A stretch of DNA of 64,000 nt, taken from NCBI GenBank assembly GCA_038207085.1, contig JBBRAE010000001.1:186536-250535 (forward strand). The letters are read 5' to 3'. The notes below the pieces were generated by a model. It saw only the letters and a program-made list of their open reading frames with translations, made no database searches and had not been told where the DNA came from. The stretch is from Armatimonadota bacterium (GTDB lineage Bacteria; Armatimonadota; UBA5829; DTLH01). Position 1 is the stretch's first letter. Each line of letters opens with the position of its first letter. Of this stretch, positions 3,800 through 27,451 are shown piece by piece. The translations under genes and the position numbers were made by a program.

Positions 3800-3883
<84 letters not shown>

Positions 3884-3906
3884 CGTTTTGGAGGCCAGGG
3901 TTAGTT

Positions 3907-11621: not shown

Positions 11622-11802
11622 TGGCCGCCAGCAAGCCCTGAACGTCGGGGATACGCATGATTAACCTAATGGAAACATTCTGGAAACAATCATGCACGAT
11701 AATAAGCGTGGCAAATTGAGACGTGCAGCGCCAATGACGACAGGTGCTAACCGATTGCGCTACGTGCGCCGTCGTATATGTATGATGAGAGGAGCGTCAA
11801 GC

Positions 11803-13899
11803 ATGATTGAAGTAAGAGAACCGATAACAAGTATTTTTGGTTCGAACGTGTTCAGCGAATCGGTGATGCGGGAGAGGCTGCCGAAGATTGTTTTCAAGGC
11901 ACTCAAGGCCACCATTGATGAGGGCCAGCCGCTCGACCCATCCATCGCTCATGTGATCGCAAACGCGATGAAGGATTGGGCCATCGAGAAGGGCGCGACG
12001 CACTTCTCTCACTGGTTCCAGCCGATGACCGGAATCACTGCCGAAAAGCACGATTCATTCATCTCCCCCACCGCCGACGGCCGCACCATTATGGAGTTCA
12101 GCGGCAAGGAACTGTTCCAGGGCGAGCCTGATGCTTCTTCCTTCCCGTCCGGTGGACTGCGCGCAACATTCGAGGCCCGCGGCTACACCGCATGGGACTG
12201 CACAAGCCCTGTGTTCATCAAGGCCGACGGCGACAACATTACGCTTTATATCCCGAGTGCGTTCTGCAGCTACACCAGCGAGGCGCTCGACAAGAAGACC
12301 CCGCTCCTTCGTTCTATGGACGCTCTGAACAAGCAGGCAATGCGCGTTCTCAGGGGCCTTGGCAATACCACGACCAAGCGCGTAACCGCAACACTTGGCG
12401 CTGAGCAGGAGTATTTCCTTGTAGACAGCAAGTTCGCAGAGGCCAGACTCGACCTGATCCTTGCCGGGCGCACCCTCTTTGGCGCCGCCCCTCCCAAGGG
12501 CCAGGAGATGGAGGACCACTACTTCGGAACTCTCCACGAGAGAGTCGCTTCCTACATGAACGAAGTCAACGTGGAACTCTGGAAGCTTGGCGTCTCAGCA
12601 AAGACTCAGCACAACGAGGTTTCACCGGCACAGTATGAGCTTGCACCGGTATTCGCAACGGTTAACGTCGCGACTGACCACAACCAGCTCACGATGGAGA
12701 CCCTGCAGAAAGTCGCTATCCGCCACGGGCTCGTCTGCCTGCTTCACGAGAAGCCGTTTGCAGGCGTCAACGGTTCCGGCAAGCACAACAACTTCAGCAT
12801 GGTCACCGATGACGGTATGAACCTGCTCGAACCCGGCAACACTCCGCACGACAACGAGCAGTTCCTTGTGATCCTGTGCTCGATCATCCGCGCGGTTGAT
12901 AAGTATTCGAAGCTGCTTAGAGCCACCGTCGCGACCGCTGGCAACGACCACAGACTCGGCGCTAACGAGGCTCCTCCTGCGATCGTATCAATCTTCCTCG
13001 GCGCTCAGCTCTCTGATATTATGGATCAGCTTGCAATCGGCGCTGCGAAGTCGAGCAAGAAGGGCGGCGACCTGAAGCTTGGAGTCAGCACCCTGCCTCC
13101 AATTCCTATGGATAGCACCGACCGCAACAGGACTTCCCCGTTTGCCTTTACCGGCAATAAGTTCGAGTTCCGAATGCTTGGCTCCAGCCAGTCGACATCA
13201 GGCCCCAACTTCGTCCTGAACTCGATCGTCGCTGACGTTCTTGCAGAGGTCGCCGATAAGCTTGAGAAGGCCAGTGATGTTCACAAGGCTGCTCAGGATA
13301 TCTGCTCCAAGATTGCAAAAGATCACAAGAACATTCTCTTCAACGGTGACAACTACTCTGATGAGTGGGTAAAGGAAGCTGAGAAGCGCGGACTGCCAAA
13401 CATCCGCAACGCCGTCGACAGCATCCACACGATGGTCGAACCGATGGTTGAGGAACTCTTCGAGAAGCACGCTGTGCTGAGCAAGGGTGAACTCCATGCC
13501 CGCCACGAGATTCTCCTTGAGAGATATGCCAAAGAGATCAACATCGAGGCACAGACCATGCTCCACATCGCAAAAAGGCAGATTCTGCCGGCTGCGATCG
13601 AGTATTCGGGCGTTATCGCAAATGCTGCGTCAGCAGTCAAGAGCGTCGGCGTGAACGCTGATGCCCAGGTCAGGGCGCTTGAAGATGTCTGCGGGCTGGT
13701 TTCCGACCTGCAGAAGAACATCGCCTCACTTCAGGCTGCCGTTACCAAGGCTCAGGAAACTGAGACCGCCGAGACATATCGCGACACGGTCATCCCCGCG
13801 ATGAGCACTGTTCGCGCGGCTGCTGATGGTCTTGAAGAGATCATGGACGCCGATCTTTGGCCGCTCCCAACCTATGCTGAGATGCTGTTCATCAAGTAA
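11803..13899 (+). CDS. glnA: Glutamine synthetase type III
   Basis: [73 protein letters not shown] and WPLPTY motifs. GAGGAG SD before ATG 11803. Confidence 0.96.
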
Positions 13900-14028: not shown

Positions 14029-14192
14029 GCAATTGGTTGTACAATCGCATGTTTGCAGATACCATCAACAGCGCCATTGTTCTGGTTATGAAATCACCTG
14101 TCACACCGATTTAGAGCGGCCACAGACTGCTGAGGATGATAGTGTGCCAACGTCGGCTCTTTGGCTGTATGATGGAGATGAAGGGAGACAGA

Positions 14193-17100
14193 ATGTCCAG
14201 ACAACGCCTAATATTCTCACTTGTGGTCGTCGCAATGCTGCTTATCGCATCTCCGGTGCTCGCGGCTACGTTCAATCTTGCCACAGACTGGTCAAGCACG
14301 GCAAATCCCAACGGCCAATGGTCATACGGTTGGGTAGATGCTACTTCAGGTGCATTTTCTCCATACAACGTTCACCCATATCAGCAATACTGGTATCCCG
14401 GGCAGAGCTATTGGTGCGTCGGGCAGGACTTGTATGGCTACGGCAACGCGAATAAGAACCTTGCCACCGGGACAGTCGTATTCTATAACGGCGGATCCGC
14501 GCGCAGGACTACTGCTCGATGGGCCAGCAACGCAACTGCTAGCGTCTACATCTGGGCGACATTTACTGCTTCATCTAATGGCACCTACTACAACCCCATC
14601 AGATGCGCGGTCCGCCGAAATGGTATTGAGCAGTTCGCGACAACGTCGAGCTATAACAATACGCTGCGCATCGCGGGAAGCATTAGTGTGAACGCCGGCG
14701 ACTCCCTTGATATCTGCACGGGGGCCGTTCCTGGAGCGACTGGTCAGACGCAAAATTACGTAACGCTCAGCGCAATTATATCGACAGATCAACCCGGGAC
14801 TGTCTCTGGGACGGTATACTCCAACCTCACCGGGCATCCCACGGTTGGTCACGCTGTTATAAAGACGTCGGACGGAAAATACTCCACCACCTCCGACGCA
14901 AGCGGCGCTTACACTCTGGCGCTACCGCCCGGGTCGTACGCCCTTGTGGCCTCTGAGAATCGGTTTGCGTCTGATCAATCTGAGCAAATCAGCATCAGCC
15001 AGGGGGCTAACACCCCTCTCGACTTCGACCTTATCGCTGGAAGCTTGACGGGCACCGTAACCTCCGACACTGCTGGAAACCCGCCGATAGCGGGAGCGAT
15101 CGTCCGCACCGATGGTAGCCCAAGTTACTCGGCGAACACCGGCGCCGACGGTGCCTATACACTCTTTGCCCCACAGATTGCCTCCACAACACGCCTTCTT
15201 GTCGCTGCGCCGGGCCACGACCCGCAGCGAGACGCTCTCGCTCTTTCGGCAGGCCAGACGAAGAGCAAGAGCTTTGCACTTCGCCCGACAGGGGCCGGGA
15301 TGCTCATCAATCTTCCTGCACCGGGTGAGTGGGGTGAGCCAGGTATGGCCCCGACTGCTCCCGGAGATGCATTTGCTGTGAAGTTCTCGAACCCTACGGC
15401 GCTGCCGAGTCCCGGAGCGCCTGCTATCAGCGGTTGGAACGAGACTATCAAACCTGATGAAACGTTCACTATGACCGGAGTTCGCTTTACAGCCCGAACA
15501 GGCGTGGATACCGGAACCGATACGGTCGTCTGGCTCTATGCAGACACACCTTCGGGCGGCGTGCTTCGCCAGATTAAAGTGTGGCGGGTCACAGCGTCGA
15601 GCTTGACTGCGCTTATGCCTAGTGACATACCATTTGGGATGTATCTGGTCTGGATAGAAAACGAGGACGGAGTAAGCGCGCCGGTCACTGTCAACAGAAC
15701 TACATCACAGTGGATTGGCCCGCTTGGCGCATCCGGCGCGGCAGGGGCGACCAAGAGGGTTTTTGGTCGGAATGTGTCCTCCAACCACGGAACTACATCG
15801 AGTTACGTGTATATTCAGCCTGCTGAGGGTGGTGCGTTTACGCAGTGCGCCGTCACGCAGGTCGAGCCATACGCGGTCTGGTTTACCATCCCGTCGGGAA
15901 CGGCGAACGGCTACTACAAGGTCTACTTGCACAACGGACACGGAGGCAGGTACGGATGGAGCGACCCCGTCGATCTCTCAGTTGCTCCAGACTGGACCAG
16001 AGACCCGGCGCAGGTTGCGGTGACCCCGAACGGGACGAACGACTCAATTAACATCCAAAACGCGATCGACAGTCTGTCGCTCAACTCTAACGGCGGCACT
16101 GTAGTGCTTTCGGCGGGTGACTATATCTTGAAGGGTGGTCTGGACCTAAAGAACGGCGTCGAGATCAAGGGCGCTGGAATGAACAGCACCAGGTTGCTCG
16201 CACAGCTGACATCCGCGGTCGCCGTCGTTAAGATCACCGGTGTGAATACTGCGCTCACAGATCTCACGATTCGCTCAAAATCCGGGTTTACTAACCCTCA
16301 AGGCGAGATCACCAACGTTGCAGGTTCAAGCGACGCGAAGTTCTTGCGCATCAGGATTGAGTCCGATGCCGGTATCTACTCAGGAAGCTTCAGCACACCG
16401 CTTCGCAGCGAGGTTGTCGGCTGTGAATGCAACCGTGAACCTGACCCTGCCGGACGCGCCTGGATCCATAACTCGACCCTGTACGGTGACTTCCACTGGG
16501 CGACCGAGGCCGCGTTGAACCTTATGACTAACTACAATGTGGTAGAGTACAGCCACGTTGAGACAAAGAACTGGCCGGTTAGCCCTACCGGCAGCAAGAA
16601 CTACACTCAGTTTATGACGTGGGAAGAGTTCAAAGACATCGTGTGGTCGATGAGAATCGCGCTCACATACTGCTCTTACAACTACATCGCGCACCTGACG
16701 AGCAAAGATGTCGCCGTTCAGACGAACAAAGGTGAGATGATACTCTTCCACGGCCACGCCGCGTACTGGTATGGCAACGTGATCACGTGCGACGGCACCA
16801 GGCTGACATTGCGGACCGATGGTCTTGTTGACGGGCAGCCTTCTGTGATTAACAACTATAGCGACATACACCTTGCTGGCGGGCAGATGGTCCCGGATGG
16901 TCCGGGAAGCTGGTACGCGCTTGACGGCAAGTATATATCAATCCTGGCAGGCGCGGGGTTCGGCGAGTCGAGAAGAATCGTTTCGCATACCCCGACCACA
17001 ATCACAATAGACCGACCGTTCAGGGTGAACCCGGACGCAACATCAAAGGCGATGGTCCAGACCAGCTTTCAGGGAAACATCATATACAAGAACGATCTAA

Positions 17101-19781
17101 ATGCCTTCCCTGTGGGTTATGACCAGACTGAGGGTTCGGCCAGCGTCGCAGTAGACATAGACGGCAATGGCTGGTCCAACATGTTCGAAGGCAACGTGTC
17201 CCACAGAACCAGAAGTGGATGCGCAATACTCTCAGTTTCCGGTGGCCCCAGCTACTGGAACGAGGCGAGAGATCACGAAGCCTACGATGTAGAAAGCGGC
17301 GGGTTCCAGATGATACCACGCGATGACCAGGCGATCGGGCCTGACCTCGTAGGCAACAGATACGAAGGCGGCATCATCAATGTAACTGGCAGCGCTGGCG
17401 GCGCGATCCACGCTGATGGTGGAGACGGCAACGCCTGCGAAGGGATCACCGCAACATCCAAACGCGGCATCTTTATGACTCACGGTGGCTACGATTGGCA
17501 CCCAGCGACTCCCAACGGGCTCACGCTCTATCGCAATAACACCGTAACGACAGTCGATGCGCCTACTTCACCCTCATCCCCGCAGCCAGTATATGTCATG
17601 AACGCAGACAGCTTGCAGTGGTTGATGAACAACAAGTATACGAACTCTTCCCAGCCATATGTGCTTGCGTCTGGAGTCGGGATGTATTCGACCCCGGTCG
17701 CTATGCGCAAACTGGTGAAGATCACCGGCTATATGGGCTACCCGATTGATGAGGTCTTGCTCGAAGTTGCAAATGTGGGATTATCGGGGATGACCTGGAC
17801 TGCCGCGGCGAGCGCGCCGTGGATTGTGCCAACTGTGCTGAGTGGCAACCCCACCGGGCCGGAAAGCGACATGGGGCGGCTCCAGATCGCCGTCAATCCC
17901 ATTGGACTTGCTGCTGGAAGACACTGGGGGTATATCGACATTCTCGCCGGCGCAAAGATCGCACGAGTCGGTGTTTGCCTTGATCTTTCCTCCGGCGCAC
18001 CGCCATCGACTGCTCCTGTTGCGAGCTTTACAGCGACTCCTACGGTCGGCACAACGCCGCTTGCCGTATCGTTCGATGCCAGGTCTTCAGTAGCCCCAGG
18101 TGGCTTGATTACGAGCTACGTGTGGGAGTTCGGAGACGGGTCAACGGGCTTGGGCGATGTCGCCAGCCACGCGTATTTGGCTGGAAGCTACACTGCTACA
18201 CTAACCGTAACTGACTCCAACGGCATCAGTGATACTGACAGAAAGGTGTTTACAGTCTACCCTGCAGTCAGCTCCATCTCGATATCCGGGTCCCCTACCC
18301 CCTTGACCGATGTTGGAACCCAGGTTACCTTTACCGCGTCTGCCGTGGGGGGATATGGCACAAAATACAAGTTCCTGCTCAAGACTGGCAACGGTGGATG
18401 GGCCACCATGCAGGACTATTCAACTGCCGCAACGGCTTCATGGACTCCGACTGCTTCCGGGTTCTATGCCATCAAGTGCCACGCACGGGCAAGTGACTCC
18501 ACCCGGGTATACGACGCTACAAGCAAGGAACTCAGCTACCCTGTAGGCATTCTGCCAGCTAGCGGTATGGCGCTTTGGCTGAAAGCCGATGCAGGCACTA
18601 CCCTTGACGCTTCGGGGAAGATAAGTGACTGGGCAGACCAGACATCAGGTTCAACAAAGAAACTTACCCAGACGACCCCTAACTACAGGCCTGGTATAGT
18701 CCAAGGAGCGCTTAACGGCCAACCGGTTGTGCGATTTACGAGTGCCTCAACCTACCTTTCAACTACCGCTTCCGTGCTCTCGGGTGCGACACCCTTTACA
18801 GCATTCACCGTGGCACGAGTCAACAGCAACCCCGCCTATAACTACCAGCATTTCTGGTGGTGCGGCACGGACTCAATCTATGCCGGTTATGCCCAGTGGA
18901 TGACAACTTCAGGCAGACTTAGGGCAAGCTGGGGAAGCTCCGGCGCGCTGATATCCACATCAACGGCGGCAACACTCAGCAGTTGGTACACAATTGCGAG
19001 CCGCTATGCTCCCGGGCTCCACGAGATGTGGCTCAACAGCACGCCGGTGAACACCTCCATCAAGTCAGACTCGAACTTAGCTGCCGGGTTCACCGTCGGC
19101 AACTCTGTGTCCAATTGCCAAGGGCTCTACGGTGATATCGCTGAGCTCTTGATATTCTCAAGAAAGCTCACGGAGACCGAGCGCCAGGGCGTAGAGCAGT
19201 ATCTCAGTGTAAGGTGGAGCAACCCTGTACCTGTGGCCGTCGACCGACTGAAAGACGTCAAAGCACTCGGTGACGGTGTGCTCGTATCGATCTCAACGTC
19301 AAAAACTGCGATCACAGACTCAGGAGTCTACTCGGACGGCGGCGTCTACGTAAGCGAGGCTGACAGAACGTGTGGGCTCAAGATAACGATCGCGGACGTT
19401 GTACAGGCTTCGGAAAGACTGACTGTTACAGGAACCACGGACACGGATGTCCTGACCGGCGAGAAGGTGTTCAGGGTTACTTCATTCAGTAAAGACGTGG
19501 GGGAGAAGGTCAATCCTCTTGGAATGGCGAACAAGACCTTAGCTGCTTCCGGTCAGCTTCTGCGGGTGTGGGGACGTGTGAAAGAAAAGACCGCATCTTA
19601 CATCACTCTTGACGACGGCTCGGGAGTGCCTGCAAAGGTTCAGATCGACGGGCTTACGACACCTATAACGAGTCTGCCGGGAGTCGGTGACTACATAAGC
19701 GTGACCGGACCGGCAGGGGTGACGGCCGGAGGAGGAACCGCGATAAGGGTCCGATCCTCAGTCGACATCAAAGTCTATTAG
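14193..19781 (+). CDS. Large secreted multidomain protein: carboxypeptidase-regulatory-like x2, beta-helix (pectate-lyase-3-like), BACON, PKD, Y_Y_Y-like, LamG-like, C-terminal tandem OB-like module
   Basis: Signal peptide; GTVSGTV..SGAYTLALPPGSY repeats; DSINIQNAID..GGTVVLSAGDY..GAG beta-helix start; WTAAASAPWI; APVASFTATP..SYVWEFGDG; LWLKADAG..GDIAELLIFSRKL; VWGRV..LDDGSG. Confidence 0.85.
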   Translation: MSRQRLIFSLVVVAMLLIASPVLAATFNLATDWSSTANPNGQWSYGWVDATSGAFSPYNVHPYQQYWYPGQSYWCVGQDLYGYGNANKNLATGTVVFYNGGSARRTTARWASNATASVYIWATFTASSNGTYYNPIRCAVRRNGIEQFATTSSYNNTLRIAGSISVNAGDSLDICTGAVPGATGQTQNYVTLSAIISTDQPGTVSGTVYSNLTGHPTVGHAVIKTSDGKYSTTSDASGAYTLALPPGSYALVASENRFASDQSEQISISQGANTPLDFDLIAGSLTGTVTSDTAGNPPIAGAIVRTDGSPSYSANTGADGAYTLFAPQIASTTRLLVAAPGHDPQRDALALSAGQTKSKSFALRPTGAGMLINLPAPGEWGEPGMAPTAPGDAFAVKFSNPTALPSPGAPAISGWNETIKPDETFTMTGVRFTARTGVDTGTDTVVWLYADTPSGGVLRQIKVWRVTASSLTALMPSDIPFGMYLVWIENEDGVSAPVTVNRTTSQWIGPLGASGAAGATKRVFGRNVSSNHGTTSSYVYIQPAEGGAFTQCAVTQVEPYAVWFTIPSGTANGYYKVYLHNGHGGRYGWSDPVDLSVAPDWTRDPAQVAVTPNGTNDSINIQNAIDSLSLNSNGGTVVLSAGDYILKGGLDLKNGVEIKGAGMNSTRLLAQLTSAVAVVKITGVNTALTDLTIRSKSGFTNPQGEITNVAGSSDAKFLRIRIESDAGIYSGSFSTPLRSEVVGCECNREPDPAGRAWIHNSTLYGDFHWATEAALNLMTNYNVVEYSHVETKNWPVSPTGSKNYTQFMTWEEFKDIVWSMRIALTYCSYNYIAHLTSKDVAVQTNKGEMILFHGHAAYWYGNVITCDGTRLTLRTDGLVDGQPSVINNYSDIHLAGGQMVPDGPGSWYALDGKYISILAGAGFGESRRIVSHTPTTITIDRPFRVNPDATSKAMVQTSFQGNIIYKNDLNAFPVGYDQTEGSASVAVDIDGNGWSNMFEGNVSHRTRSGCAILSVSGGPSYWNEARDHEAYDVESGGFQMIPRDDQAIGPDLVGNRYEGGIINVTGSAGGAIHADGGDGNACEGITATSKRGIFMTHGGYDWHPATPNGLTLYRNNTVTTVDAPTSPSSPQPVYVMNADSLQWLMNNKYTNSSQPYVLASGVGMYSTPVAMRKLVKITGYMGYPIDEVLLEVANVGLSGMTWTAAASAPWIVPTVLSGNPTGPESDMGRLQIAVNPIGLAAGRHWGYIDILAGAKIARVGVCLDLSSGAPPSTAPVASFTATPTVGTTPLAVSFDARSSVAPGGLITSYVWEFGDGSTGLGDVASHAYLAGSYTATLTVTDSNGISDTDRKVFTVYPAVSSISISGSPTPLTDVGTQVTFTASAVGGYGTKYKFLLKTGNGGWATMQDYSTAATASWTPTASGFYAIKCHARASDSTRVYDATSKELSYPVGILPASGMALWLKADAGTTLDASGKISDWADQTSGSTKKLTQTTPNYRPGIVQGALNGQPVVRFTSASTYLSTTASVLSGATPFTAFTVARVNSNPAYNYQHFWWCGTDSIYAGYAQWMTTSGRLRASWGSSGALISTSTAATLSSWYTIASRYAPGLHEMWLNSTPVNTSIKSDSNLAAGFTVGNSVSNCQGLYGDIAELLIFSRKLTETERQGVEQYLSVRWSNPVPVAVDRLKDVKALGDGVLVSISTSKTAITDSGVYSDGGVYVSEADRTCGLKITIADVVQASERLTVTGTTDTDVLTGEKVFRVTSFSKDVGEKVNPLGMANKTLAASGQLLRVWGRVKEKTASYITLDDGSGVPAKVQIDGLTTPITSLPGVGDYISVTGPAGVTAGGGTAIRVRSSVDIKVY

Positions 19782-19856: not shown

Positions 19857-21554
19857 ATGAATATAGACGTAAGTTACACTCCATTCAGCCGCTTCGGCTC
19901 GTACATCGCGTTTTCACAGATCGACGACAGCAGAGCTAAGCTGGCCAACATCACGCCAGGGCTTTGGATGCGCTGCGTCCACGGAGATGCAGCCAAGGAG
20001 GTCTTTCGCCTTGAGGTTCTGGTTGACGGCGTGCCCGCGCCTTACGAGATATCAGCCGAACCGGCCGTGCTGACACTTTCCACTGAGCGAGGCAGCGTAC
20101 GTGTGTGCATCTCAAGCACGGATCAAGTGCGCTTCCAGGGAAACGGCATTGGGCTGAGGCTAGTCGGGCGTGACGGCGCTAATAACTGCGCCATACCCCA
20201 ACCTGAGGGACGCTGGCTGATCACAATGGCCACGGCGTTTCGCAACTACGTAGCCGTGCCGCTCGCGGGTGAGCTGAAGGTAGATGCCCCCTGGGGAATC
20301 GCAAAGTGCAACTATGTTCACGTCGATCTTCTGCCGGACTCAACAGAATTCTTTGATATCGCGCTTGATCAGGTCGTCGGAGCTTGGACACCCGGCGTCT
20401 ATTCGAGCTCGTTTGATGATATCGCAGACGCGATTGACCATGAGTTCCGCCAGTTTGCCCAAGGGTGCGGCAGTGTGCCCACGGAGTTCGCGGAAACAGC
20501 AGAAGCGGCTGCCTATCTCAACTGGTCGACAGTCGTTCACCCCTGCGGGCTTTTAGGTCGTCCCGCTATGCTGATGAGTAAGAACTGGATGACCAACGTC
20601 TGGAGCTGGGACCATGCATTCAACGCGATGGCACTTGCCTACGGTCACCCGGAGCTTGCCTGGGATCAGATGATGACCATGTTCGACCACCAGCAGCCCG
20701 AGGGCCAGATTCCCGACTTTGTAAACGATGTCGTCATGCTCTACTGCTTCGTCAAACCGCCGATCCACGGTTGGATCCTCTCCAAGATGATGGACGCCAA
20801 CCCCTGGTTCAGAGACAAGTCACGCGTCGAGGAGATATACGAGCCGATGTGCAAGTTCACCGACTGGTGGTTTGCGCACCGCAACCCAGACGGCGACGGT
20901 CTGCCGCAGTACCACCACGGCAACGATTCTGGCTGGGATAACGGCACCGTGTTTGATATTGGTCTTCCAGTGAAAGGCTGCGATCTTGCAGCGTTCCTGG
21001 TGGTCCAGATGTCGGTCCTCGCTGATATGGCGACAATGCTTGGACGCGAAGAAGAGTCTAAGAAATGGTCGGCAAGGTCTGATGAGACGCTTCAGAAACT
21101 CCTAGCCAAACTCTGGAAAGGCGATTGCTTTGTTTGCCCATCAGCGATCGACGGAAGCGTCACAGAAGAATCTGACAGCATCTTCACCTGTCTGCCGATT
21201 ATTCTTGGAGATAAGCTTCCACTAGAGATTAGGCAGAAGCTTGCGTCTGACATCGAGCGCCATTTGACGGAATGGGGACCGGCAACCGAAAACGTGGGCT
21301 CTCCGCTCTACGAACGTGACGGCTACTGGCGCGGCCCCATCTGGGCACCGCCGACGATGATCATCGCGGACGGGCTTCGCCGCGCGGGCTTTGATGATCT
21401 GGCAAAGGACGTAGCAGGCCGATTCTGCAAACTCTGCAAGAAGAGCGAGTTTGCCGAGAACTTCGACGCTGTAACCGGCGAACCGCTCAGAGACCGCGCC
21501 TACACCTGGACTTCGAGCGTGTTCCTGGTGCTCGCGCACGAGTTCCTGTCCTAA
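19857..21554 (+). CDS. (alpha/alpha)6 glycoside hydrolase, GH63/MGH1/trehalase-like
   Basis: VWSWDHAF, KPPIHG, HGNDSGWDN, YWRGPIW, FAENFD and YTWTSS motifs. Confidence 0.85.
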   Translation: MNIDVSYTPFSRFGSYIAFSQIDDSRAKLANITPGLWMRCVHGDAAKEVFRLEVLVDGVPAPYEISAEPAVLTLSTERGSVRVCISSTDQVRFQGNGIGLRLVGRDGANNCAIPQPEGRWLITMATAFRNYVAVPLAGELKVDAPWGIAKCNYVHVDLLPDSTEFFDIALDQVVGAWTPGVYSSSFDDIADAIDHEFRQFAQGCGSVPTEFAETAEAAAYLNWSTVVHPCGLLGRPAMLMSKNWMTNVWSWDHAFNAMALAYGHPELAWDQMMTMFDHQQPEGQIPDFVNDVVMLYCFVKPPIHGWILSKMMDANPWFRDKSRVEEIYEPMCKFTDWWFAHRNPDGDGLPQYHHGNDSGWDNGTVFDIGLPVKGCDLAAFLVVQMSVLADMATMLGREEESKKWSARSDETLQKLLAKLWKGDCFVCPSAIDGSVTEESDSIFTCLPIILGDKLPLEIRQKLASDIERHLTEWGPATENVGSPLYERDGYWRGPIWAPPTMIIADGLRRAGFDDLAKDVAGRFCKLCKKSEFAENFDAVTGEPLRDRAYTWTSSVFLVLAHEFLS

Positions 21555-21592: not shown

Positions 21593-21708
21593 TATCTACC
21601 CCCAATCGCACAATTCCCCAAAATCCCTCCAAAAGAAGCAGGTAATCCCACGTTTTCTGGCGAACTCATCATTAGCAAACTGTTTGCAAACAGGAGATGA
21701 TCTTTACG

Positions 21709-22530
21709 ATGAGTTTGTTTTCATTGACCGGTAAGAACGCGGTTGTTCTCGGCGGCGCTGGCGTGCTCGGCTGTGATGTTGCCCGCGGGCTTGCTGCTAA
21801 CGGCGCAAGTGTAGCTGTCGCCGACCTCTCGCTTGAGAATGCTCAGGCGCTTGCATCCAGCCTGAACACGAACGGCGGCAAGTGCTCCGCCTATCGTGTT
21901 GATGCGATGCTCGCAGAGTCGCTTCAGGAAGTGTGCGACCAAGTTGTAGATGACTTTGGCCAGATCGACATATTGGTTAACGCAGTCGGCGGCAATTCCA
22001 AGGCTGCAACCATCTCAAACGAGGTCGATTTCTTCAATCTGCCCATCCCGGCCCTCCAGAACGTTGTCAACCTGAACCTCTTTGCTGGGGCGATTCTTCC
22101 TTCGCAGATATTCGGCAAGGTGATGACAGGAAACGCCGACGGCGGTTCGATCATCAACGTGAGCTCCATGAACGCATTTCGTCCGCTGACGAGAATTGCG
22201 GGCTACTCCGCCGCAAAGGCTGCCGTAAGCAACTTCACCCAGTGGCTCGCAGTGTATCTTGCTCAGGCAGGGTATCCGATGCTCAGAGTGAACGCGATTG
22301 CGCCAGGGTTTTTCCTCACGGAGCAGAACAGATTCCTCCTCACCGACGAGAAGTCCGGAGAGCTTACCGAGCGCGGGCAGAAGATTCTGGCTCACACTCC
22401 GATGAACCGTTTCGGCAACCCCGAGGACCTGATCGGCACACTCATCTGGCTCGCCTCCGACGCCTCGAAGTTCGTAACGGGGATCGTTGTCCCGGTTGAT
22501 GGCGGTTTCTCGGCTTATAGTGGAGTTTAG
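21709..22530 (+). CDS. SDR-family D-mannonate oxidoreductase (fructuronate reductase)-like
   Basis: GGAGVLG, NVSSMNAFRPLTRIAGYSAAKAAVSNFTQWLA, NAIAPGFFLTEQNR and HTPMNRFG motifs match the SDR mannonate oxidoreductase subfamily. Alternative start at 21697. Confidence 0.85.
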   Translation: MSLFSLTGKNAVVLGGAGVLGCDVARGLAANGASVAVADLSLENAQALASSLNTNGGKCSAYRVDAMLAESLQEVCDQVVDDFGQIDILVNAVGGNSKAATISNEVDFFNLPIPALQNVVNLNLFAGAILPSQIFGKVMTGNADGGSIINVSSMNAFRPLTRIAGYSAAKAAVSNFTQWLAVYLAQAGYPMLRVNAIAPGFFLTEQNRFLLTDEKSGELTERGQKILAHTPMNRFGNPEDLIGTLIWLASDASKFVTGIVVPVDGGFSAYSGV

Positions 22531-22534
22531 AGAC

Positions 22535-23830
22535 ATGGCAAATAGACCTCGAAATGTAGTCGTTGCGCAGTCCGGCGGGCCTTCGCCGGTCATCAACAAC
22601 TCGTTGCGCGGCGTAATTGAAACCTGCAAGTCTATGCCCGACGTGTTCGGAACGGTCTACGGCGGTTGGCACGGCGTTGAGGGCCTTCTAAGGGAAGAAC
22701 TACTCGACATCAGTAACCAGAGCCCTGAGGAGATTTCGCTTCTTCGGACGACCCCCGCTGCGGGATCGATCGGCACATGCCGCTACAAGCTGAAGAAAGA
22801 CCGGCAGGAAGACTTTGACAGGGTAATCGAGATATTCAAGGCCCACGATGTAGGATTCTTCTTCTATATCGGCGGCAACGACTCGATGGATACTGCCCAT
22901 AAGATCAGTGAGCTCGCCCATGAGAAGGGTCTTGACCTGATTGCCGTCGGCGTGCCGAAGACGATCGATAATGACGTAGGTGACTCAGAGTTCAAGCTTA
23001 TCGACCACACGCCGGGCTACGGAAGCGTCGCGAAGTATTGGGCGCACTATATCCAGTGCGCGAACGAGGAGAACCAGGGTTCGTCCCCCGCTGATCCCGT
23101 GCTCGTCATGCAGGTAATGGGCCGCAAGATCGGCTTTATACCCGCTGCCGCGCGTCTCGCCGACCCGGATCGCCGTATGCCGCTACAGATATATCTTGTG
23201 GAGTCAGGCCTTTCGCTTTCAGACCTCGCCGATGGGGTTAGCGATCAACTGAGGACCGACGGACGATGCCTGGTCGCCGTCAGCGAAGGGTTCAATGTCG
23301 GTGACATCGGCGAGATGAAGGATTCCTTCGGTCACACGACGTTCAGCTCAAGCCAGATCACAGTTGCTCAAGTTATCACCAATTACTTGAACAAGGTTGG
23401 ACTTCCGGTTGGCGGCGCAGCGCGGTGTCAGGTGCCGGGATGCGACCAGCGGGATGCCATCGCCTACGCGTCGACGGTCGACCTCGATGAAGCGTATCTC
23501 GTCGGCTGTAAAGCCGTCCAGGTCGCATTTCAGGACGGAAACGGCTATATGGCGACGATTCTCAGGAAGCCGGGCTCGATCTATAGCGTATACTACGACA
23601 AGGTCCCGCTTGAGAAGGTCGCAAACTCAGAGAGAACCTTCCCCAGGGAGTGGCTTTCCGAGTCCCGCACAGACGTGACAGACGAGTTCGTAGACTACGC
23701 GAGACCACTGATCGGAGAGGACTTGGTAAGCGTGCCGATGGTCAATGGCCTGATGCGTTTCGCGCGGTTTGAACCGAAGTTCGCAGACAAAAAGCTGCCG
23801 GACTATATGCCGGTTGGATATCGTAAATAG
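22535..23830 (+). CDS. PfkA-family kinase, PPi-dependent type; substrate uncertain
   Basis: AQSGGPSPVIN, GGNDSMD (Asp at the PPi/ATP discriminating site), PKTIDND, QVMGR. Confidence 0.88.
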   Translation: MANRPRNVVVAQSGGPSPVINNSLRGVIETCKSMPDVFGTVYGGWHGVEGLLREELLDISNQSPEEISLLRTTPAAGSIGTCRYKLKKDRQEDFDRVIEIFKAHDVGFFFYIGGNDSMDTAHKISELAHEKGLDLIAVGVPKTIDNDVGDSEFKLIDHTPGYGSVAKYWAHYIQCANEENQGSSPADPVLVMQVMGRKIGFIPAAARLADPDRRMPLQIYLVESGLSLSDLADGVSDQLRTDGRCLVAVSEGFNVGDIGEMKDSFGHTTFSSSQITVAQVITNYLNKVGLPVGGAARCQVPGCDQRDAIAYASTVDLDEAYLVGCKAVQVAFQDGNGYMATILRKPGSIYSVYYDKVPLEKVANSERTFPREWLSESRTDVTDEFVDYARPLIGEDLVSVPMVNGLMRFARFEPKFADKKLPDYMPVGYRK

Positions 23831-23866
23831 CAAGTTATTCAGAATATCTTGATGGAGGAAGTCAAT

Positions 23867-24754
23867 ATGTCAGATCCGGCACAGGCGCTGAAGGATCTTA
23901 AGAAAGAACACGAGTTTTTGGTCGGGATCGACTCCGACGGCTGCGCGTTCGATACGATGGAGATCAAACACAAGGAGTGCTTTATCCCCAATATCGTCAA
24001 ATACTGGGACCTGCAGGCTGTCTCAAAGTATGCCCGCGAGGCTGCAGAGTTCGTCAATCTGTACTCCAAGTGGCGCGGAATCAACAGGTTTCCGGCGCTT
24101 CTGATGGTCCTTGATCTGCTCGAAGAGCGTGATAACGTCAAGAAGCGCGGCGTAACCATCCCCCGAGCTGAGTCGCTTCGCAAGTGGGCGGAGACCGAGA
24201 CCAAGCTTGGTAACCCTGCCCTTATAAAGGCTGTCGAAGCCACCGGCGACCCCGTTCTCATCCAGACGCTTGAGTGGTCCAAGGCCGTCAACGCAAGCGT
24301 TGAGGACATTGTCCACGGCGTGCCGCCGTTCCCGTTTGTCAGGGAGAGCCTGGAGAAGGTGCTGCCGCTCGCCGATATGGTCGTCGTTTCGGCTACTCCC
24401 GGCGAGGCACTCGTTCGAGAGTGGGAAGAGCATGACATCGCCAAGTACACCAAGGTGATCGCGGGCCAGGAGATGGGTAACAAGAAAGAGCATCTGAAGT
24501 ACGCGATCGATGGTCGCTACCAGCCCGACCACGTGTTGATGATCGGCGATGCTCCCGGAGATATGAAGGCCGCAAAAGCCAACAACGCGCTCTTCTACCC
24601 GATTAACCCCGGCGACGAGGACACTTCCTGGCAGAGGTTCTACGAAGAAGCGTTCGACAAGTTCATCGCTGGCGAGTACGCCGGTGAGTACGAAGCAAAG
24701 TTGATCGCAGAGTTCGACAAGTACCTGCCGGACACACCTTTCTGGAAGAAGTAG
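23867..24754 (+). CDS. HAD-superfamily hydrolase/phosphatase
   Basis: Motif I DSDGC, motif II VVSAT, motif IV MIGDAPGD; GGAGG SD. Confidence 0.85.
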   Translation: MSDPAQALKDLKKEHEFLVGIDSDGCAFDTMEIKHKECFIPNIVKYWDLQAVSKYAREAAEFVNLYSKWRGINRFPALLMVLDLLEERDNVKKRGVTIPRAESLRKWAETETKLGNPALIKAVEATGDPVLIQTLEWSKAVNASVEDIVHGVPPFPFVRESLEKVLPLADMVVVSATPGEALVREWEEHDIAKYTKVIAGQEMGNKKEHLKYAIDGRYQPDHVLMIGDAPGDMKAAKANNALFYPINPGDEDTSWQRFYEEAFDKFIAGEYAGEYEAKLIAEFDKYLPDTPFWKK

Positions 24755-24756
24755 AT

Positions 24757-26001
24757 ATGATCGGAACAGGATACCAAGACCGCCAGCTCACCGAGAGCGA
24801 GGCGGTCAACCTAATTCGTATAGCTCTTGAAAGCGAGAGCTTCGACGGCAAGCGTGTTCTTATGCTGCTGCCGGACCACACGCGTTCGGCTCCGGTGCCG
24901 ATGATGTTCAAGGCGATCTACGAAGCACTGGCGCATCGAACAGCCGCGCTTGACGCTTTGATCGCTCTTGGAACGCATCCCCCAATGGCCGAAGAGCATA
25001 TACATCAGCTCGTAGGCATCACGGGCGACGAACACGAGACTAAGTACTCCAAGACTACGTTCTATAACCATATGTGGAAAGATCCCGACGCGCTCACGTG
25101 CGTTGGAACGATCCCCGAAGACCGAATCTTTGAGATCACCGAGGGAAAGTTCAGGATGCCGGTTGATGTGGAGGTCAACAAGCTTCTCCTCGATTACGAC
25201 CACATCATGATCGTCGGTCCGGTCTTCCCGCACGAAGTCGCGGGGTTCTCCGGTGGAAACAAGTATGTCTTCCCTGGAGTCGCAGGTCAGGGGATAATCG
25301 ACTTCTTCCACTGGCTTGGGGCACTAATCACAAACCCGGTCATCATCGGGACGAAATACACCCCGGTGCGCGGCGTGATCGACGAGGCTGTGAAGTATGT
25401 CCCCACGGAGCGGAGCGCCTTCTCAATGGTGATGCAGGGGCACGACCTGATGGGGATCTACTACGGTGACGTTGACGAATCGTGGTCAGCTGCCGCCGAT
25501 CAATCCGACAAGCTCAATATCATCTACAAAGACAAAAGCTTTCACACCGTGCTTTCCCGCGCTCCTGAGATGTATGACGACCTCTGGACCGGCGGCAAGT
25601 GCATGTATAAGCTCGAACCGGTTGTCGCCGACGGCGGCAAGCTCATCATCTACGCGCCGCACATCACCGAGATCAGCTATACTCACGGCAAGGTGCTCGA
25701 CGAGATCGGGTATCATACCCGGGACTACTTCACGGCCCAGTGGGACAAGTTCAAGGACTACCCCTGGGGCGTCGTAGCCCACTCCACCCACGTCCGAGGC
25801 ATTGGGATCTACGAAAACGGGGTAGAGAAGCCTCGCGTGGACGTGATACTCGCAACCGGCATCCCACAAGAGCGATGCCGACAGGTCAATCTCGGGTACA
25901 TCAACCCGAAGGACATCAACCCCAGCGACTATATGGACAGGGAAAATGAAGGCGTGCTCTATGTGCCAAGAGCCGGTGAGATGCTTTACAGACTGAAGTA
26001 A
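24757..26001 (+). CDS. LarA-family (nickel-pincer) racemase/epimerase, probable sugar-acid 2-epimerase
   Basis: PDHTRS, ALGTHPPM, PHEVAGFSGGNKY and FFHW carry the conserved His/Lys residues of the LarA family. Confidence 0.88.
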   Translation: MIGTGYQDRQLTESEAVNLIRIALESESFDGKRVLMLLPDHTRSAPVPMMFKAIYEALAHRTAALDALIALGTHPPMAEEHIHQLVGITGDEHETKYSKTTFYNHMWKDPDALTCVGTIPEDRIFEITEGKFRMPVDVEVNKLLLDYDHIMIVGPVFPHEVAGFSGGNKYVFPGVAGQGIIDFFHWLGALITNPVIIGTKYTPVRGVIDEAVKYVPTERSAFSMVMQGHDLMGIYYGDVDESWSAAADQSDKLNIIYKDKSFHTVLSRAPEMYDDLWTGGKCMYKLEPVVADGGKLIIYAPHITEISYTHGKVLDEIGYHTRDYFTAQWDKFKDYPWGVVAHSTHVRGIGIYENGVEKPRVDVILATGIPQERCRQVNLGYINPKDINPSDYMDRENEGVLYVPRAGEMLYRLK

Positions 26002-26038
26002 CATAGCGATTTGTACGACTTTCAGCAAAGGAGATTCT

Positions 26039-27451
26039 ATGTCTAAAGCAAATATGGGTATGGTCGGGCTCGGCGTAATGGGCCAGAACCTTGCCCTGAA
26101 TATGGAAAGCAAAGGCTTCAACGTCTGCGGCTACGACACCTCACGCGAGAAGGTCGATGCGTTCGTTAACGGCAAAGGCCAGGGCAAGAACGTCTGCGGC
26201 GCGTATTCGCTGCAGGAGCTGATCGACTGCCTGGAGAAACCTCGCAGAATTATGATGATGGTGCCGGCGGGCAAACCAGTTGATGAAGTTATCGACACTC
26301 TTGCACCGATGCTTGAGTCGGGCGATATTCTGATCGACGGAGGAAACTCTTACTTCCGAGACACTACCCTGCGCACAAAGGCACTTGAGAGCCAGGGTTT
26401 GCTCTTCATCGGCACAGGTGTCTCCGGCGGTGAAGAAGGCGCGCTCCGAGGCCCGAGCATTATGCCCGGCGGCTCGCCTGACGCATGGCCCGCAGTACAG
26501 CCGATCCTCCAGAAGATCGCCGCCAAGGTCCCTGATGGCACTCCGTGCTGCCAGTGGGTCGGACGCGACGGCGCGGGGCATTTCGTCAAGATGATCCACA
26601 ATGGCATCGAGTACGGCGATATGCAGCTCATCTCCGAAGCCTACTTCATCATGAAAGAGGCGCTCGGACTCTCAGCCGATGAGCTTCACGAAGTTTTTGC
26701 CGAATGGAACAAGGGCGAGCTTTCGAGTTATCTCATCGAGATTACCGCTGATATCTTTACCAAGAAAGACCCCGACACCGGGCTTCCGGTAGTCGATATC
26801 ATTCTGGACTCGGCAGGCCAGAAGGGCACAGGAAGCTGGACGAGCCAGATCGCCCTTGAGTTCGGAGTCGCCGCACCGACGATCGCCGAAGCGGTCTTTG
26901 CGCGCTGTATTTCAGCGATCAAGAGCGAGCGGGTTGCGGCCTCCAAAACGCTTTCCGGCCCAGACGCTAAGTTTGAAGGCGACAAGAAGCAGTTCATCGA
27001 AGATATTCGTCAGACGCTTTACGCATCCAAGATCTGCTCCTATGCTCAGGGTTTCGGCCTTATGCGCGAGGCTAACAAGGAGTATGATTGGGGTCTCAAG
27101 TTCGGCGATATCGCTCTGCTTTGGCGCGCAGGCTGCATCATCCGTGCCGCGTTCCTCGACCCGATCAAAGAGGCGTTTGACACCAACCCGGAACTCCCGA
27201 ACCTCCTGATGGCACCCTACTTCACTGATGCTGTCGATAAGGCGCAGAAGAGTTGGAGAAATGTTGTCGCCATTGCTGCTCGGCTTGGGATCCCAATCCC
27301 TGGATTCAGCTCGGCGCTCGCCTACTTCGACAGCTACAGACGCGACAGGCTCCCTGCGAACCTGATTCAGGCGCAGCGCGATTACTTCGGCGCGCACACC
27401 TACAAGAGAGTCGACAAAGAAGGCACATTCCACACCGAATGGATCGATTAG
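26039..27451 (+). CDS. gnd: 6-phosphogluconate dehydrogenase, decarboxylating
   Basis: GLGVMGQNLALN, GVSGGEEGA, HFVKMIHNGIEYGDMQ, QKGTG and QAQRDYFGAHTY motifs. Confidence 0.98.
   Translation: MSKANMGMVGLGVMGQNLALNMESKGFNVCGYDTSREKVDAFVNGKGQGKNVCGAYSLQELIDCLEKPRRIMMMVPAGKPVDEVIDTLAPMLESGDILIDGGNSYFRDTTLRTKALESQGLLFIGTGVSGGEEGALRGPSIMPGGSPDAWPAVQPILQKIAAKVPDGTPCCQWVGRDGAGHFVKMIHNGIEYGDMQLISEAYFIMKEALGLSADELHEVFAEWNKGELSSYLIEITADIFTKKDPDTGLPVVDIILDSAGQKGTGSWTSQIALEFGVAAPTIAEAVFARCISAIKSERVAASKTLSGPDAKFEGDKKQFIEDIRQTLYASKICSYAQGFGLMREANKEYDWGLKFGDIALLWRAGCIIRAAFLDPIKEAFDTNPELPNLLMAPYFTDAVDKAQKSWRNVVAIAARLGIPIPGFSSALAYFDSYRRDRLPANLIQAQRDYFGAHTYKRVDKEGTFHTEWID

Follow-up and report, generated by a model that had tools for sequence, protein, structure and literature searches.

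Here, we describe a five-gene cassette of an Armatimonadota bacterium (GenBank assembly GCA_038207085.1) and propose that it encodes a route from hexonates to ribulose 5-phosphate, in which the phosphorylation step would be carried by a pair of proteins, a phosphofructokinase (PFK) homologue and a HAD-superfamily protein. The cassette lies in a stretch of 64,000 nucleotides (hereafter the window) of contig JBBRAE010000001.1, covering positions 186,536 to 250,535 of the forward strand. At window positions 21709-27451, five co-oriented open reading frames (ORFs) on the + strand, separated by gaps of 4, 21, 2, and 37 bp, encode a short-chain dehydrogenase/reductase (SDR) of the mannonate oxidoreductase type, the PFK homologue, the HAD protein, a LarA-family protein, and the 6-phosphogluconate dehydrogenase Gnd. 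An initial annotation, made from the letters alone, had described this order with gaps of 2-37 bp and had named the five families; the ORFs and profile searches confirmed both. On the evidence of sequence and gene neighbourhood, we give the proposed route a probability of about 0.58. The PFK homologue as the putative occupant of the kinase slot is the best-supported reading.

The five-gene arrangement is far beyond chance and recurs in many phyla. Pattern scans of one genome per species gave at least 598 stretches with relatives of the PFK homologue and at least 595 with relatives of the HAD protein. The 80 best stretches from each scan were retrieved as loci and searched by tblastn with the window proteins, and linkage was counted where both flanks extended for 4 kb or more. 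The PFK and HAD relatives come from Planctomycetota, Bacteroidota, Chloroflexota, Acidobacteriota, Ignavibacteriota, Hydrogenedentota, Spirochaetota, Bacillota, Nitrospirota, Elusimicrobiota, and others. They are 62-85% identical across these phyla, and the closest PFK relatives are in metagenome-assembled genomes (MAGs) of Armatimonadota and Abditibacteriota. The initial annotation had suggested a survey of the neighbourhoods of this PFK subfamily, and the expected co-occurrence was found. Among the 28 loci whose PFK is at least 64% identical to the window protein, 27 have Gnd and 23 have HAD; at 49-63% identity (8 loci) and below 49% (7 loci), each gene was found once per group. Gnd thus stands beside 27/28 close relatives vs 2/15 distant ones, and the linkage to gnd and HAD is specific to the PFK cassette clade. 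The HAD-centred loci (n = 43) contain a PFK with an identity of at least 55% in 27 cases and another PRK14072-type PFK in 4, together with Gnd (32), LarA of two subtypes (26), UxaE (22), UxaC (9), and a PdxB equivalog (6). SDR homologues are present in 16/34 PFK-centred and 29/43 HAD-centred loci. Clustering and Pfam/NCBIfam searches further identified LacI regulators and transketolase among the cassette neighbours, and Zwf in Pirellulales. The PdxB equivalog (4-phosphoerythronate dehydrogenase; 461 bits vs 434) is located between HAD and LarA in L042, L107, L120, L123, L136, L153, L161, L166, and L177, which hints that phospho-aldonates are handled in the cassettes. The smallest recurrent unit is Gnd-PFK-HAD.

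The kinase types exclude each other at the level of the locus, and the PFK homologue is coupled to HAD. Among 60 pooled non-redundant LarA loci, each flanked by 3 kb or more on either side, 35 have a PFK, 6 a PfkB-like kinase, 3 a P-loop GntK, and 16 none of these; two types were found together in 0. The loci with and without HAD, respectively, number 29 and 3 for PFK clade A, 3 and 0 for other PRK14072-type PFKs, 1 and 5 for PfkB-like kinases, 0 and 3 for P-loop GntK, and 3 and 13 where no kinase was found. HAD thus accompanies PFK in 32/35 loci. The Fisher p-values, which ignore shared ancestry and bait bias, are 2.3e-9 for HAD vs PFK and 1.4e-4 for PFK vs another kinase near LarA. A canonical gntK in these clusters, which the initial annotation had named as evidence against its proposal, was found in none of the PFK-bearing LarA loci (0/35). 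At the genome level, too, a canonical gluconate kinase is rare: a P-loop GntK over the cut-off is present in 2/34 cassette genomes and FGGY gntK in 0/34.

A sample baited with LarA comprised 301 Acidobacteriota genomes, 25 of which matched at a threshold of E 1e-30. Neither PFK nor HAD was found near LarA in these 25 loci, including six with an adjacent Gnd match; HAD therefore does not accompany LarA or Gnd as a rule. Four of the loci carry a P-loop gluconokinase in the order UxaC-LarA-UxaE-GntK-SDR (TIGR01313 153.8 bits vs 113.75). In six others, a PfkB-family kinase resembling 2-keto-3-deoxygluconate (KDG) kinase is next to LarA and/or Gnd without Eda. The PfkB-like kinase falls below all equivalog cut-offs and occurs in the LarA-Gnd cassettes L192, L193, L195, L198, L201, L207, L119, L126, and L137, with an Eda gene in the same locus in L119; it is a candidate for a second non-canonical hexonate kinase. 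The PFK clade is present in 3/25 of the Acidobacteriota genomes and HAD in exactly the same 3, with 0/22 in the others (p = 4.3e-4). In these three genomes, Gnd, PFK, and HAD form an adjacent trio away from the LarA locus, which has no kinase. The PFK/HAD pair was found in 0/10 Acidobacteriota genomes with a cassette GntK or PfkB. A LarA search of 401 Bacillota-phylum genomes at E 1e-40 gave no match, but this carries no information, as the type-2 LarA of that phylum falls outside the threshold.

The PFK homologue belongs to the PfkA family (PF00365 130.3 bits vs 30.9) and, within it, to the PRK14072 subfamily (375.4 bits vs 273). It matches the solved structure 3K2Q at E 1e-71. In a tree, the cassette PFKs form a tight group on a long stem, with the Acetivibrio-type pyrophosphate (PPi)-dependent PFKs as the sister group. 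The identity to these enzymes is 36-37%, and orthology with a characterized PPi-PFK acting on fructose 6-phosphate (F6P) or sedoheptulose 7-phosphate (S7P) was not obtained; the sister group is that of the C. thermocellum F6P/S7P kinase, as characterized in the available text of PMC7029132. The motifs GGNDS, PKTIDND, MGR, SEG, and the Arg before QVPG..QR can be aligned with those of the genome's own PfkA. Asp at position 104 and Lys at position 124 (E. coli numbering), which we take to be the signature of PPi-dependent PFKs, are found throughout the clade. Judged by this signature (GGNDS and PKTIDND), the PFK homologue probably uses PPi, in line with the PPi type that the initial annotation had assigned. 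Among the features that are invariant in the clade and differ from the sister groups are two insertions, one of five residues (with conserved Asp and Phe) immediately following TIDND and one of four residues directly ahead of the Arg243 equivalent, as well as a change of Glu to Gln two residues before MGR. These features adjoin the sugar-phosphate-binding elements of classical PFKs, which would be consistent with a pocket that has been reshaped but can still accommodate a distal anion. In each of the 34 cassette genomes examined, one or more further PFK-family genes are present, and 25 of them have a TAL_FSA-family (PF00923) gene, as does the host genome; glycolysis therefore does not depend on this clade alone, nor does the clade generally stand in for transaldolase. 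Both roles, sole glycolytic PFK and general transaldolase substitute, were accordingly rejected, and a housekeeping PFK is unlikely.

The HAD protein matches HAD_2 weakly (31 bits) and carries the DxD motif. Fourteen sequences share D27-S-D29, S180/T182, K211, and G232-D-A-x-G-D237 without variation, and the AlphaFold model has a pLDDT of 94. Motifs I-IV, the Rossmannoid core, and the C1 cap place the protein in subfamily IA. No sequence match was found in the PDB, and the ESM Atlas has no entry for the sequence. The Foldseek neighbours are generic subfamily IA folds at ~15% identity. They include phosphoglycolate phosphatases, the mannitol-1-phosphatase domain of MtlD, YniC, beta-phosphoglucomutase, BT2127 pyrophosphatase, and CbbY, and the highest VIA Z (17.6, 190 residues, root-mean-square deviation 2.8) was obtained with 2AH5. 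The protein does not qualify as a phosphoglycolate phosphatase (Gph/PGP), as PRK13222 gave 21.2 bits vs 225, and it could be assigned to no named family. Invariant Lys, Arg, and Asn residues abound in the unusually large cap, which may accommodate a ligand that is polyhydroxylated and carries several negative charges. The HAD gene is found together with that of the PFK homologue or immediately following SDR, and the protein looks like an uncharacterized subfamily that is a near-obligate partner of the PFK homologue. The initial annotation had considered a proofreading phosphatase or a phosphotransferase; both are kept as readings here, and the protein is more than an optional accessory because it is so tightly coupled to PFK.

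Several fusions of HAD relatives were also found. An in-frame HAD-Gnd protein of 803 aa occurs in 4/14 members of one cluster, and near-identical relatives keep two genes (313 + 490 aa); as functional evidence the fusion is weak. In ~18 clusters (P0125-P0142), proteins of ~570 aa combine the HAD family (47-53% identity) with a second, type IIB HAD domain (Hydrolase_3 / S6PP-like). At greater distance, relatives carry GH1, GH2, GH88, or sulfatase domains as fusion partners. An apparent PFK-HAD fusion (P0144, the one inspected of P0144/P0148) was rejected as a frameshifted read-through because garbled Arg/Pro-rich stretches separate the two matching parts.

Of the remaining enzymes, the SDR matches the D-mannonate oxidoreductase model of NCBIfam, PRK08277, with 353.1 bits vs a cut-off of 281, and its second-best model, gluconate 5-dehydrogenase, is below its own cut-off (179.6 bits). 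Gnd is well above the cut-offs of TIGR00873 (727.8 bits vs 426.7) and PRK09287 (737 bits vs 413). The LarA homologue matches Lar_N with 78.8 bits. Its best NCBIfam model, NPN_18_hexonate (putative hexonate epimerase group 18), gave 172.7 bits, below the cut-off of 500, in a comparison without models for groups 19 and 20. The motifs THPP, PHE, GGNK, and FFHW align with those of LarA, which we take to hold the two catalytic His, the Lys that tethers the nickel-pincer nucleotide (NPN), and the Ni-binding His. The best solved relative, 4NAR (E 6.6e-67, residues 30-414), is the GntE2 of T. maritima, for which D-gluconate/D-mannonate 2-epimerase activity has been demonstrated (PMC7583248). An assignment as GntE-type, closest to Thermotoga GntE2, is supported by these comparisons. 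The initial annotation had proposed a genome search for larBCE, which was successful: a larE-larB-larC cluster is located ~12 kb past the window end on the same contig, with LarE at 318 bits vs 150, LarC at 489 bits, and an AIRC-domain gene beside larE as the LarB-like member. An SDR-like gene is directly upstream of this cluster. A second LarA gene, on contig 19, stands between genes for a GntR/FCD regulator, an aldehyde dehydrogenase, and an alpha-L-rhamnosidase, and its product is probably a lactate racemase with a role in rhamnose/lactaldehyde metabolism.

The host genome (83 contigs, 100% complete by markers, with the window on contig 1) lacks the canonical branch. The absence of uxuA and eda and of FGGY and GntK kinases had been noted for the window; UxuA, KDPG aldolase (Eda; KDPG is 2-keto-3-deoxy-6-phosphogluconate), and a P-loop GntK over the cut-off were not found in the whole genome either, the best TIGR01313 match being 24 bits. 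The window also has no kdgK, and the only match to a KdgK-type query is 23% identical and on another contig. Four FGGY kinases (xylulokinase, XylB-like, rhamnulokinase, and ribulokinase) are encoded, all outside the window, and the best genome match to gntK_FGGY is 313 bits vs the cut-off of 648.55. There are three PFK-family genes, namely, an ATP-type PfkA, a long PPi-PFK (TIGR02477, 781 bits), and the cassette PFK homologue, and Zwf adjoins the TAL_FSA-family (transaldolase/FSA) gene on contig 5. UxaC was not found in the genome, and UxaE is represented only by a partial match of 27% identity. The start of the route from fructuronate, as originally envisaged, is therefore without a visible source in this organism.

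Here, we propose how the cassette may work. The SDR would interconvert the 5-keto-hexonate (fructuronate) and D-mannonate, and the GntE-type LarA enzyme would invert C2 by means of its nickel-pincer cofactor, from the mannonate to the gluconate configuration. The PFK homologue and its HAD partner would supply the phosphorylation that is done in Thermotoga by the FGGY gluconate kinase and in some Acidobacteriota by a P-loop GntK or a PfkB-type kinase, and Gnd would decarboxylate 6-phosphogluconate to ribulose 5-phosphate. In the sub-model that we prefer, gluconate and/or mannonate would be phosphorylated directly at their terminal CH2OH by the PFK homologue with PPi, the hexonate carboxylate may take the place of the 6-phosphate of F6P, and HAD would remove a wrong or inhibitory phospho-acid. 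Gluconate is favoured as the substrate because of the minimal Gnd-PFK-HAD trio and because a gluconokinase occupies the same slot elsewhere. We infer only provisionally whether the product of the pair is 6-phosphogluconate or 6-phosphomannonate, which donor is used, in which order phosphorylation and epimerization occur, and how PFK and HAD divide the work. In a bolder form, against which the odds clearly stand, the two proteins together would be a PPi-driven hexonate kinase in hundreds of species and more than ten phyla, with PFK charging a bisphosphate carrier or acting on the acid sugar and HAD passing the phosphate on or editing the product; sugar acids would then be phosphorylated with no need of ATP.

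Several observations weigh against the proposed route, and some of them favour a housekeeping module instead. The clade keeps TIDND, MGR, and the Glu222/Arg243/Arg252 equivalents of ordinary PFKs, and the homologue could still be an F6P/S7P kinase; the PRK14072 family includes characterized PPi-PFKs for these substrates (PMC7029132, and the M. capsulatus enzyme as cited in PMC5673643, each in its available text). PFK would then be an ordinary reversible PPi-PFK or an S7P kinase acting on Gnd-derived pentose phosphates, HAD would guard Gnd, for example against 4-phosphoerythronate, and the gluconate kinase would be elsewhere. A candidate for the last is the XylB-like FGGY kinase on contig 21 (XylB 370.6 bits vs 380.25; gntK_FGGY 283 bits vs 648.55), and the FGGY cut-off, like other family cut-offs, may miss divergent gluconate kinases. 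Its neighbours are genes for CbiM/Q/O, Maf, and RapZ, with no sugar-acid context; the CbiM/CbiQ/ABC transporter could import nickel or cobalt. No transaldolase was detectable in 9/34 cassette genomes, some cassettes include transketolase, Zwf, or the PdxB equivalog, and the HAD-Gnd fusions would also suit a guard of Gnd. 4-Phosphoerythronate inhibits 6-phosphogluconate dehydrogenase and is detoxified by phosphatases, as the available part of PMC6449344 states. The genome-level test of kinase exclusion was not significant (p = 0.25); the exclusion is shown at the level of the locus. Thermogutta THTE_2629 is presumably a member of the clade, to judge only from the proximity of its locus tag to that of the SDR THTE_2632. 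It has been read as a PPi-PFK in the housekeeping sense, by homology only (PMC5673643). The host genome also lacks UxaC and with it a visible supply of the entry substrate. HAD occurs without the PFK clade: among 14 HAD genomes without a nearby PFK, one has a full-length clade member elsewhere, 5 gave no match to a PRK14072-type PFK within E 1e-40, and in the others only relatives of 36-43% identity were seen. Three loci pair HAD with a PfkB-like kinase in genomes without PRK14072-type PFKs, and the neighbour genes of stand-alone HAD loci gave no functional clue. Finally, except for the 25 Acidobacteriota loci, all loci were baited with PFK or HAD; most of the genomes are MAGs, many of them incomplete, and related genomes are not independent. 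The housekeeping module is nevertheless unlikely in our judgement. The other PFK and TAL_FSA genes of the cassette genomes leave it little to supply, a separate kinase should sometimes share the PFK cassette (GntK/PfkB-type in 0/35 PFK loci vs 9/25 loci without PFK), a guard of Gnd should not be missing from the Acidobacteriota LarA loci with adjacent Gnd, and SDR-HAD pairs exist without gnd nearby.

Two further mechanisms keep the pathway and change the chemistry. HAD may be a hexonate phosphotransferase working via an aspartyl-phosphate, with PFK using PPi to regenerate a bisphosphate donor such as fructose 1,6-bisphosphate. Such a relay would account for the tight coupling of the two proteins in the pooled loci and in the Acidobacteriota genomes (3/3 vs 0/22), for the unusual conservation of both across phyla, at 62-82% identity, and for the F6P-type residues retained in the PFK site. 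It would also agree with the complete catalytic set of HAD, including the Asp+2 residue, with the beta-phosphoglucomutase-type folds among its structural neighbours, and with gene orders that match the route (SDR-HAD-LarA-Gnd-PFK and SDR-PFK-HAD-LarA-Gnd). Full cassettes with HAD and without a PRK14072 PFK (L118 and L119) fit a phosphotransferase role of HAD, but HAD cassettes of this kind would need another donor, and the structural neighbours are mostly plain phosphatases at low identity; we regard the relay as improbable. Alternatively, phosphorylation may come first, with PFK acting on the C1-OH of D-fructuronate, which would resemble F6P with a carboxylate in place of the phosphate, and with SDR and LarA using phosphorylated intermediates as in Lactobacillus suebicus. 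The Km of GntE for free mannonate is high (17 and 120 mM in the available text of PMC7583248), and PdxB, a phospho-aldonate enzyme, is present in several cassettes. However, the minimal and most conserved unit, Gnd-PFK-HAD, has no SDR or LarA and fits a kinase that already yields 6-phosphogluconate, and Acidobacteriota cassettes put a GntK-family gluconokinase in the same slot. This order of events seems very improbable.

The coordinates of the cassette and of the other features are collected in Table 1. The PFK start is the first ATG inside an ORF that opens at 22487. The next downstream gene is 625 bp from the operon end. Upstream, the GH63-like hydrolase is a candidate operon member only and a possible substrate supplier; a GH63 query gave zero matches in the PFK-centred and HAD-centred loci of other genomes, and the gene is not conserved beside the cassette. 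Because the genome lacks UxaC, this hydrolase and the 1881-aa protein encoded upstream of it could deliver the substrate. A scan for promoters and terminators gave no signal above the shuffled expectation, and no RNA evidence was listed for the window stretch, the only matches being DNA runs of sediment metagenomes.

Table 1. Features of the window and related loci of the host genome (window positions unless a contig is given)
Feature	Position	Strand	Remarks
962-aa fusion, DUF1638 + hydantoinase/oxoprolinase N and A domains	3814-6702	+	
Type III glutamine synthetase	11692-13899		
1881-aa protein: CarboxypepD_reg, PKD, Y_Y_Y, weak pectate-lyase-like (RHGA/epimerase) domain	14136-19781	+	upstream of GH63-like gene
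GH63-like (MGH1-like) glycoside hydrolase	19857..21554	+	PF22422 185.8 bits; 154 bp upstream of operon
SDR oxidoreductase, D-mannonate/fructuronate reductase subfamily (UxuB/UxaD-like)	21697..22530	+	PRK08277; alternative start ATG 21709
PfkA-family kinase, 431 aa, PRK14072 subfamily	22535..23830	+	PF00365 + PRK14072; candidate pathway kinase
HAD-superfamily phosphotransferase or phosphatase, 300 aa, large C1 cap	23852..24754 (alternative start 23849)	+	motifs, model
LarA-superfamily GntE-type predicted NPN 2-epimerase of hexonate or phosphohexonate	24757..26001	+	
Gnd, decarboxylating NADP-type 6-phosphogluconate dehydrogenase	26039..27451	+	TIGR00873, PRK09287
larE-larB-larC cluster	contig 1, 262207-264910		L010, L209
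LarE	contig 1, 262207-262983		
Second LarA gene with neighbours	contig 19, 7037-12970 of L183		
XylB-like FGGY kinase with neighbours	contig 21, 3621-8267 of L182		

The passage of uronic and aldonic acids into the pentose phosphate pathway via a nickel-pincer epimerase is known in outline, and the kinase step is without an assigned gene in most carriers. If the PFK/HAD pair supplies this step, the label "diphosphate--fructose-6-phosphate 1-phosphotransferase" would be wrong in hundreds of genomes, and the PfkA fold would gain a new substrate class. Metabolic reconstructions would then change for Planctomycetota, Bacteroidota, Chloroflexota, Acidobacteriota, and several candidate phyla, in which the gene is now counted as glycolytic or as a transaldolase bypass. 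In the literature searched, no PFK-family or PPi-dependent aldonate kinase and no such PFK/HAD pair is described, and a search for mannonate kinase genes or a fructuronate kinase matched only the L. suebicus paper (PMC6978723).

The closest precedents are in Thermotoga and Lactobacillus. The Thermotoga proposal, as given in the available text of PMC7583248 and PMC6978723, ties GntE to gluconate kinase and the pentose phosphate pathway, and the link to gluconate kinase and gnd given in the initial annotation is in print. Like the T. maritima branch, the window operon unites an SDR fructuronate/mannonate reductase, a GntE-type LarA, and Gnd, and it bypasses UxuA, KdgK, and Eda. For that branch, Rodionova et al. 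2012 reportedly proposed the arrangement gnd-uxaR-uxaE-uxaD-gntE-gntK. Unlike it, the window operon has the PfkA-family and HAD genes instead of an FGGY GntK, and the host genome lacks UxaC and a clear UxaE. A similarity is also seen with the mannonate kinase / 6-phosphomannonate 2-epimerase route of L. suebicus, which leads from mannonate to 6-phosphogluconate and Gnd without a KDG branch; there, the kinase and epimerase activities are ATP-dependent in extracts, their genes are unassigned, and, in contrast to the window cassette, no PFK or HAD genes are implicated in the available text (PMC6978723). The cassette PFK shares family, fold, catalytic motifs, and the PPi signature with PRK14072-type PPi-PFKs (C. 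thermocellum Clo1313_1876 and the M. capsulatus enzyme; relatives 3K2Q and 3HNO), from which it differs by its separate long-stem clade with insertions, by the constant presence of other PFKs, and by its ties to gnd and HAD rather than to glycolysis genes. The HAD protein has the subfamily IA core, C1 cap, DxD nucleophile, and acid-base pair of PGP/Pho13 proofreading phosphatases and beta-phosphoglucomutase, and its link to Gnd recalls the detoxification of 4-phosphoerythronate. Unlike these proteins, to which it is only ~15% identical, it has a much larger cap and is coupled to the PFK homologue, not to Gnd in general.

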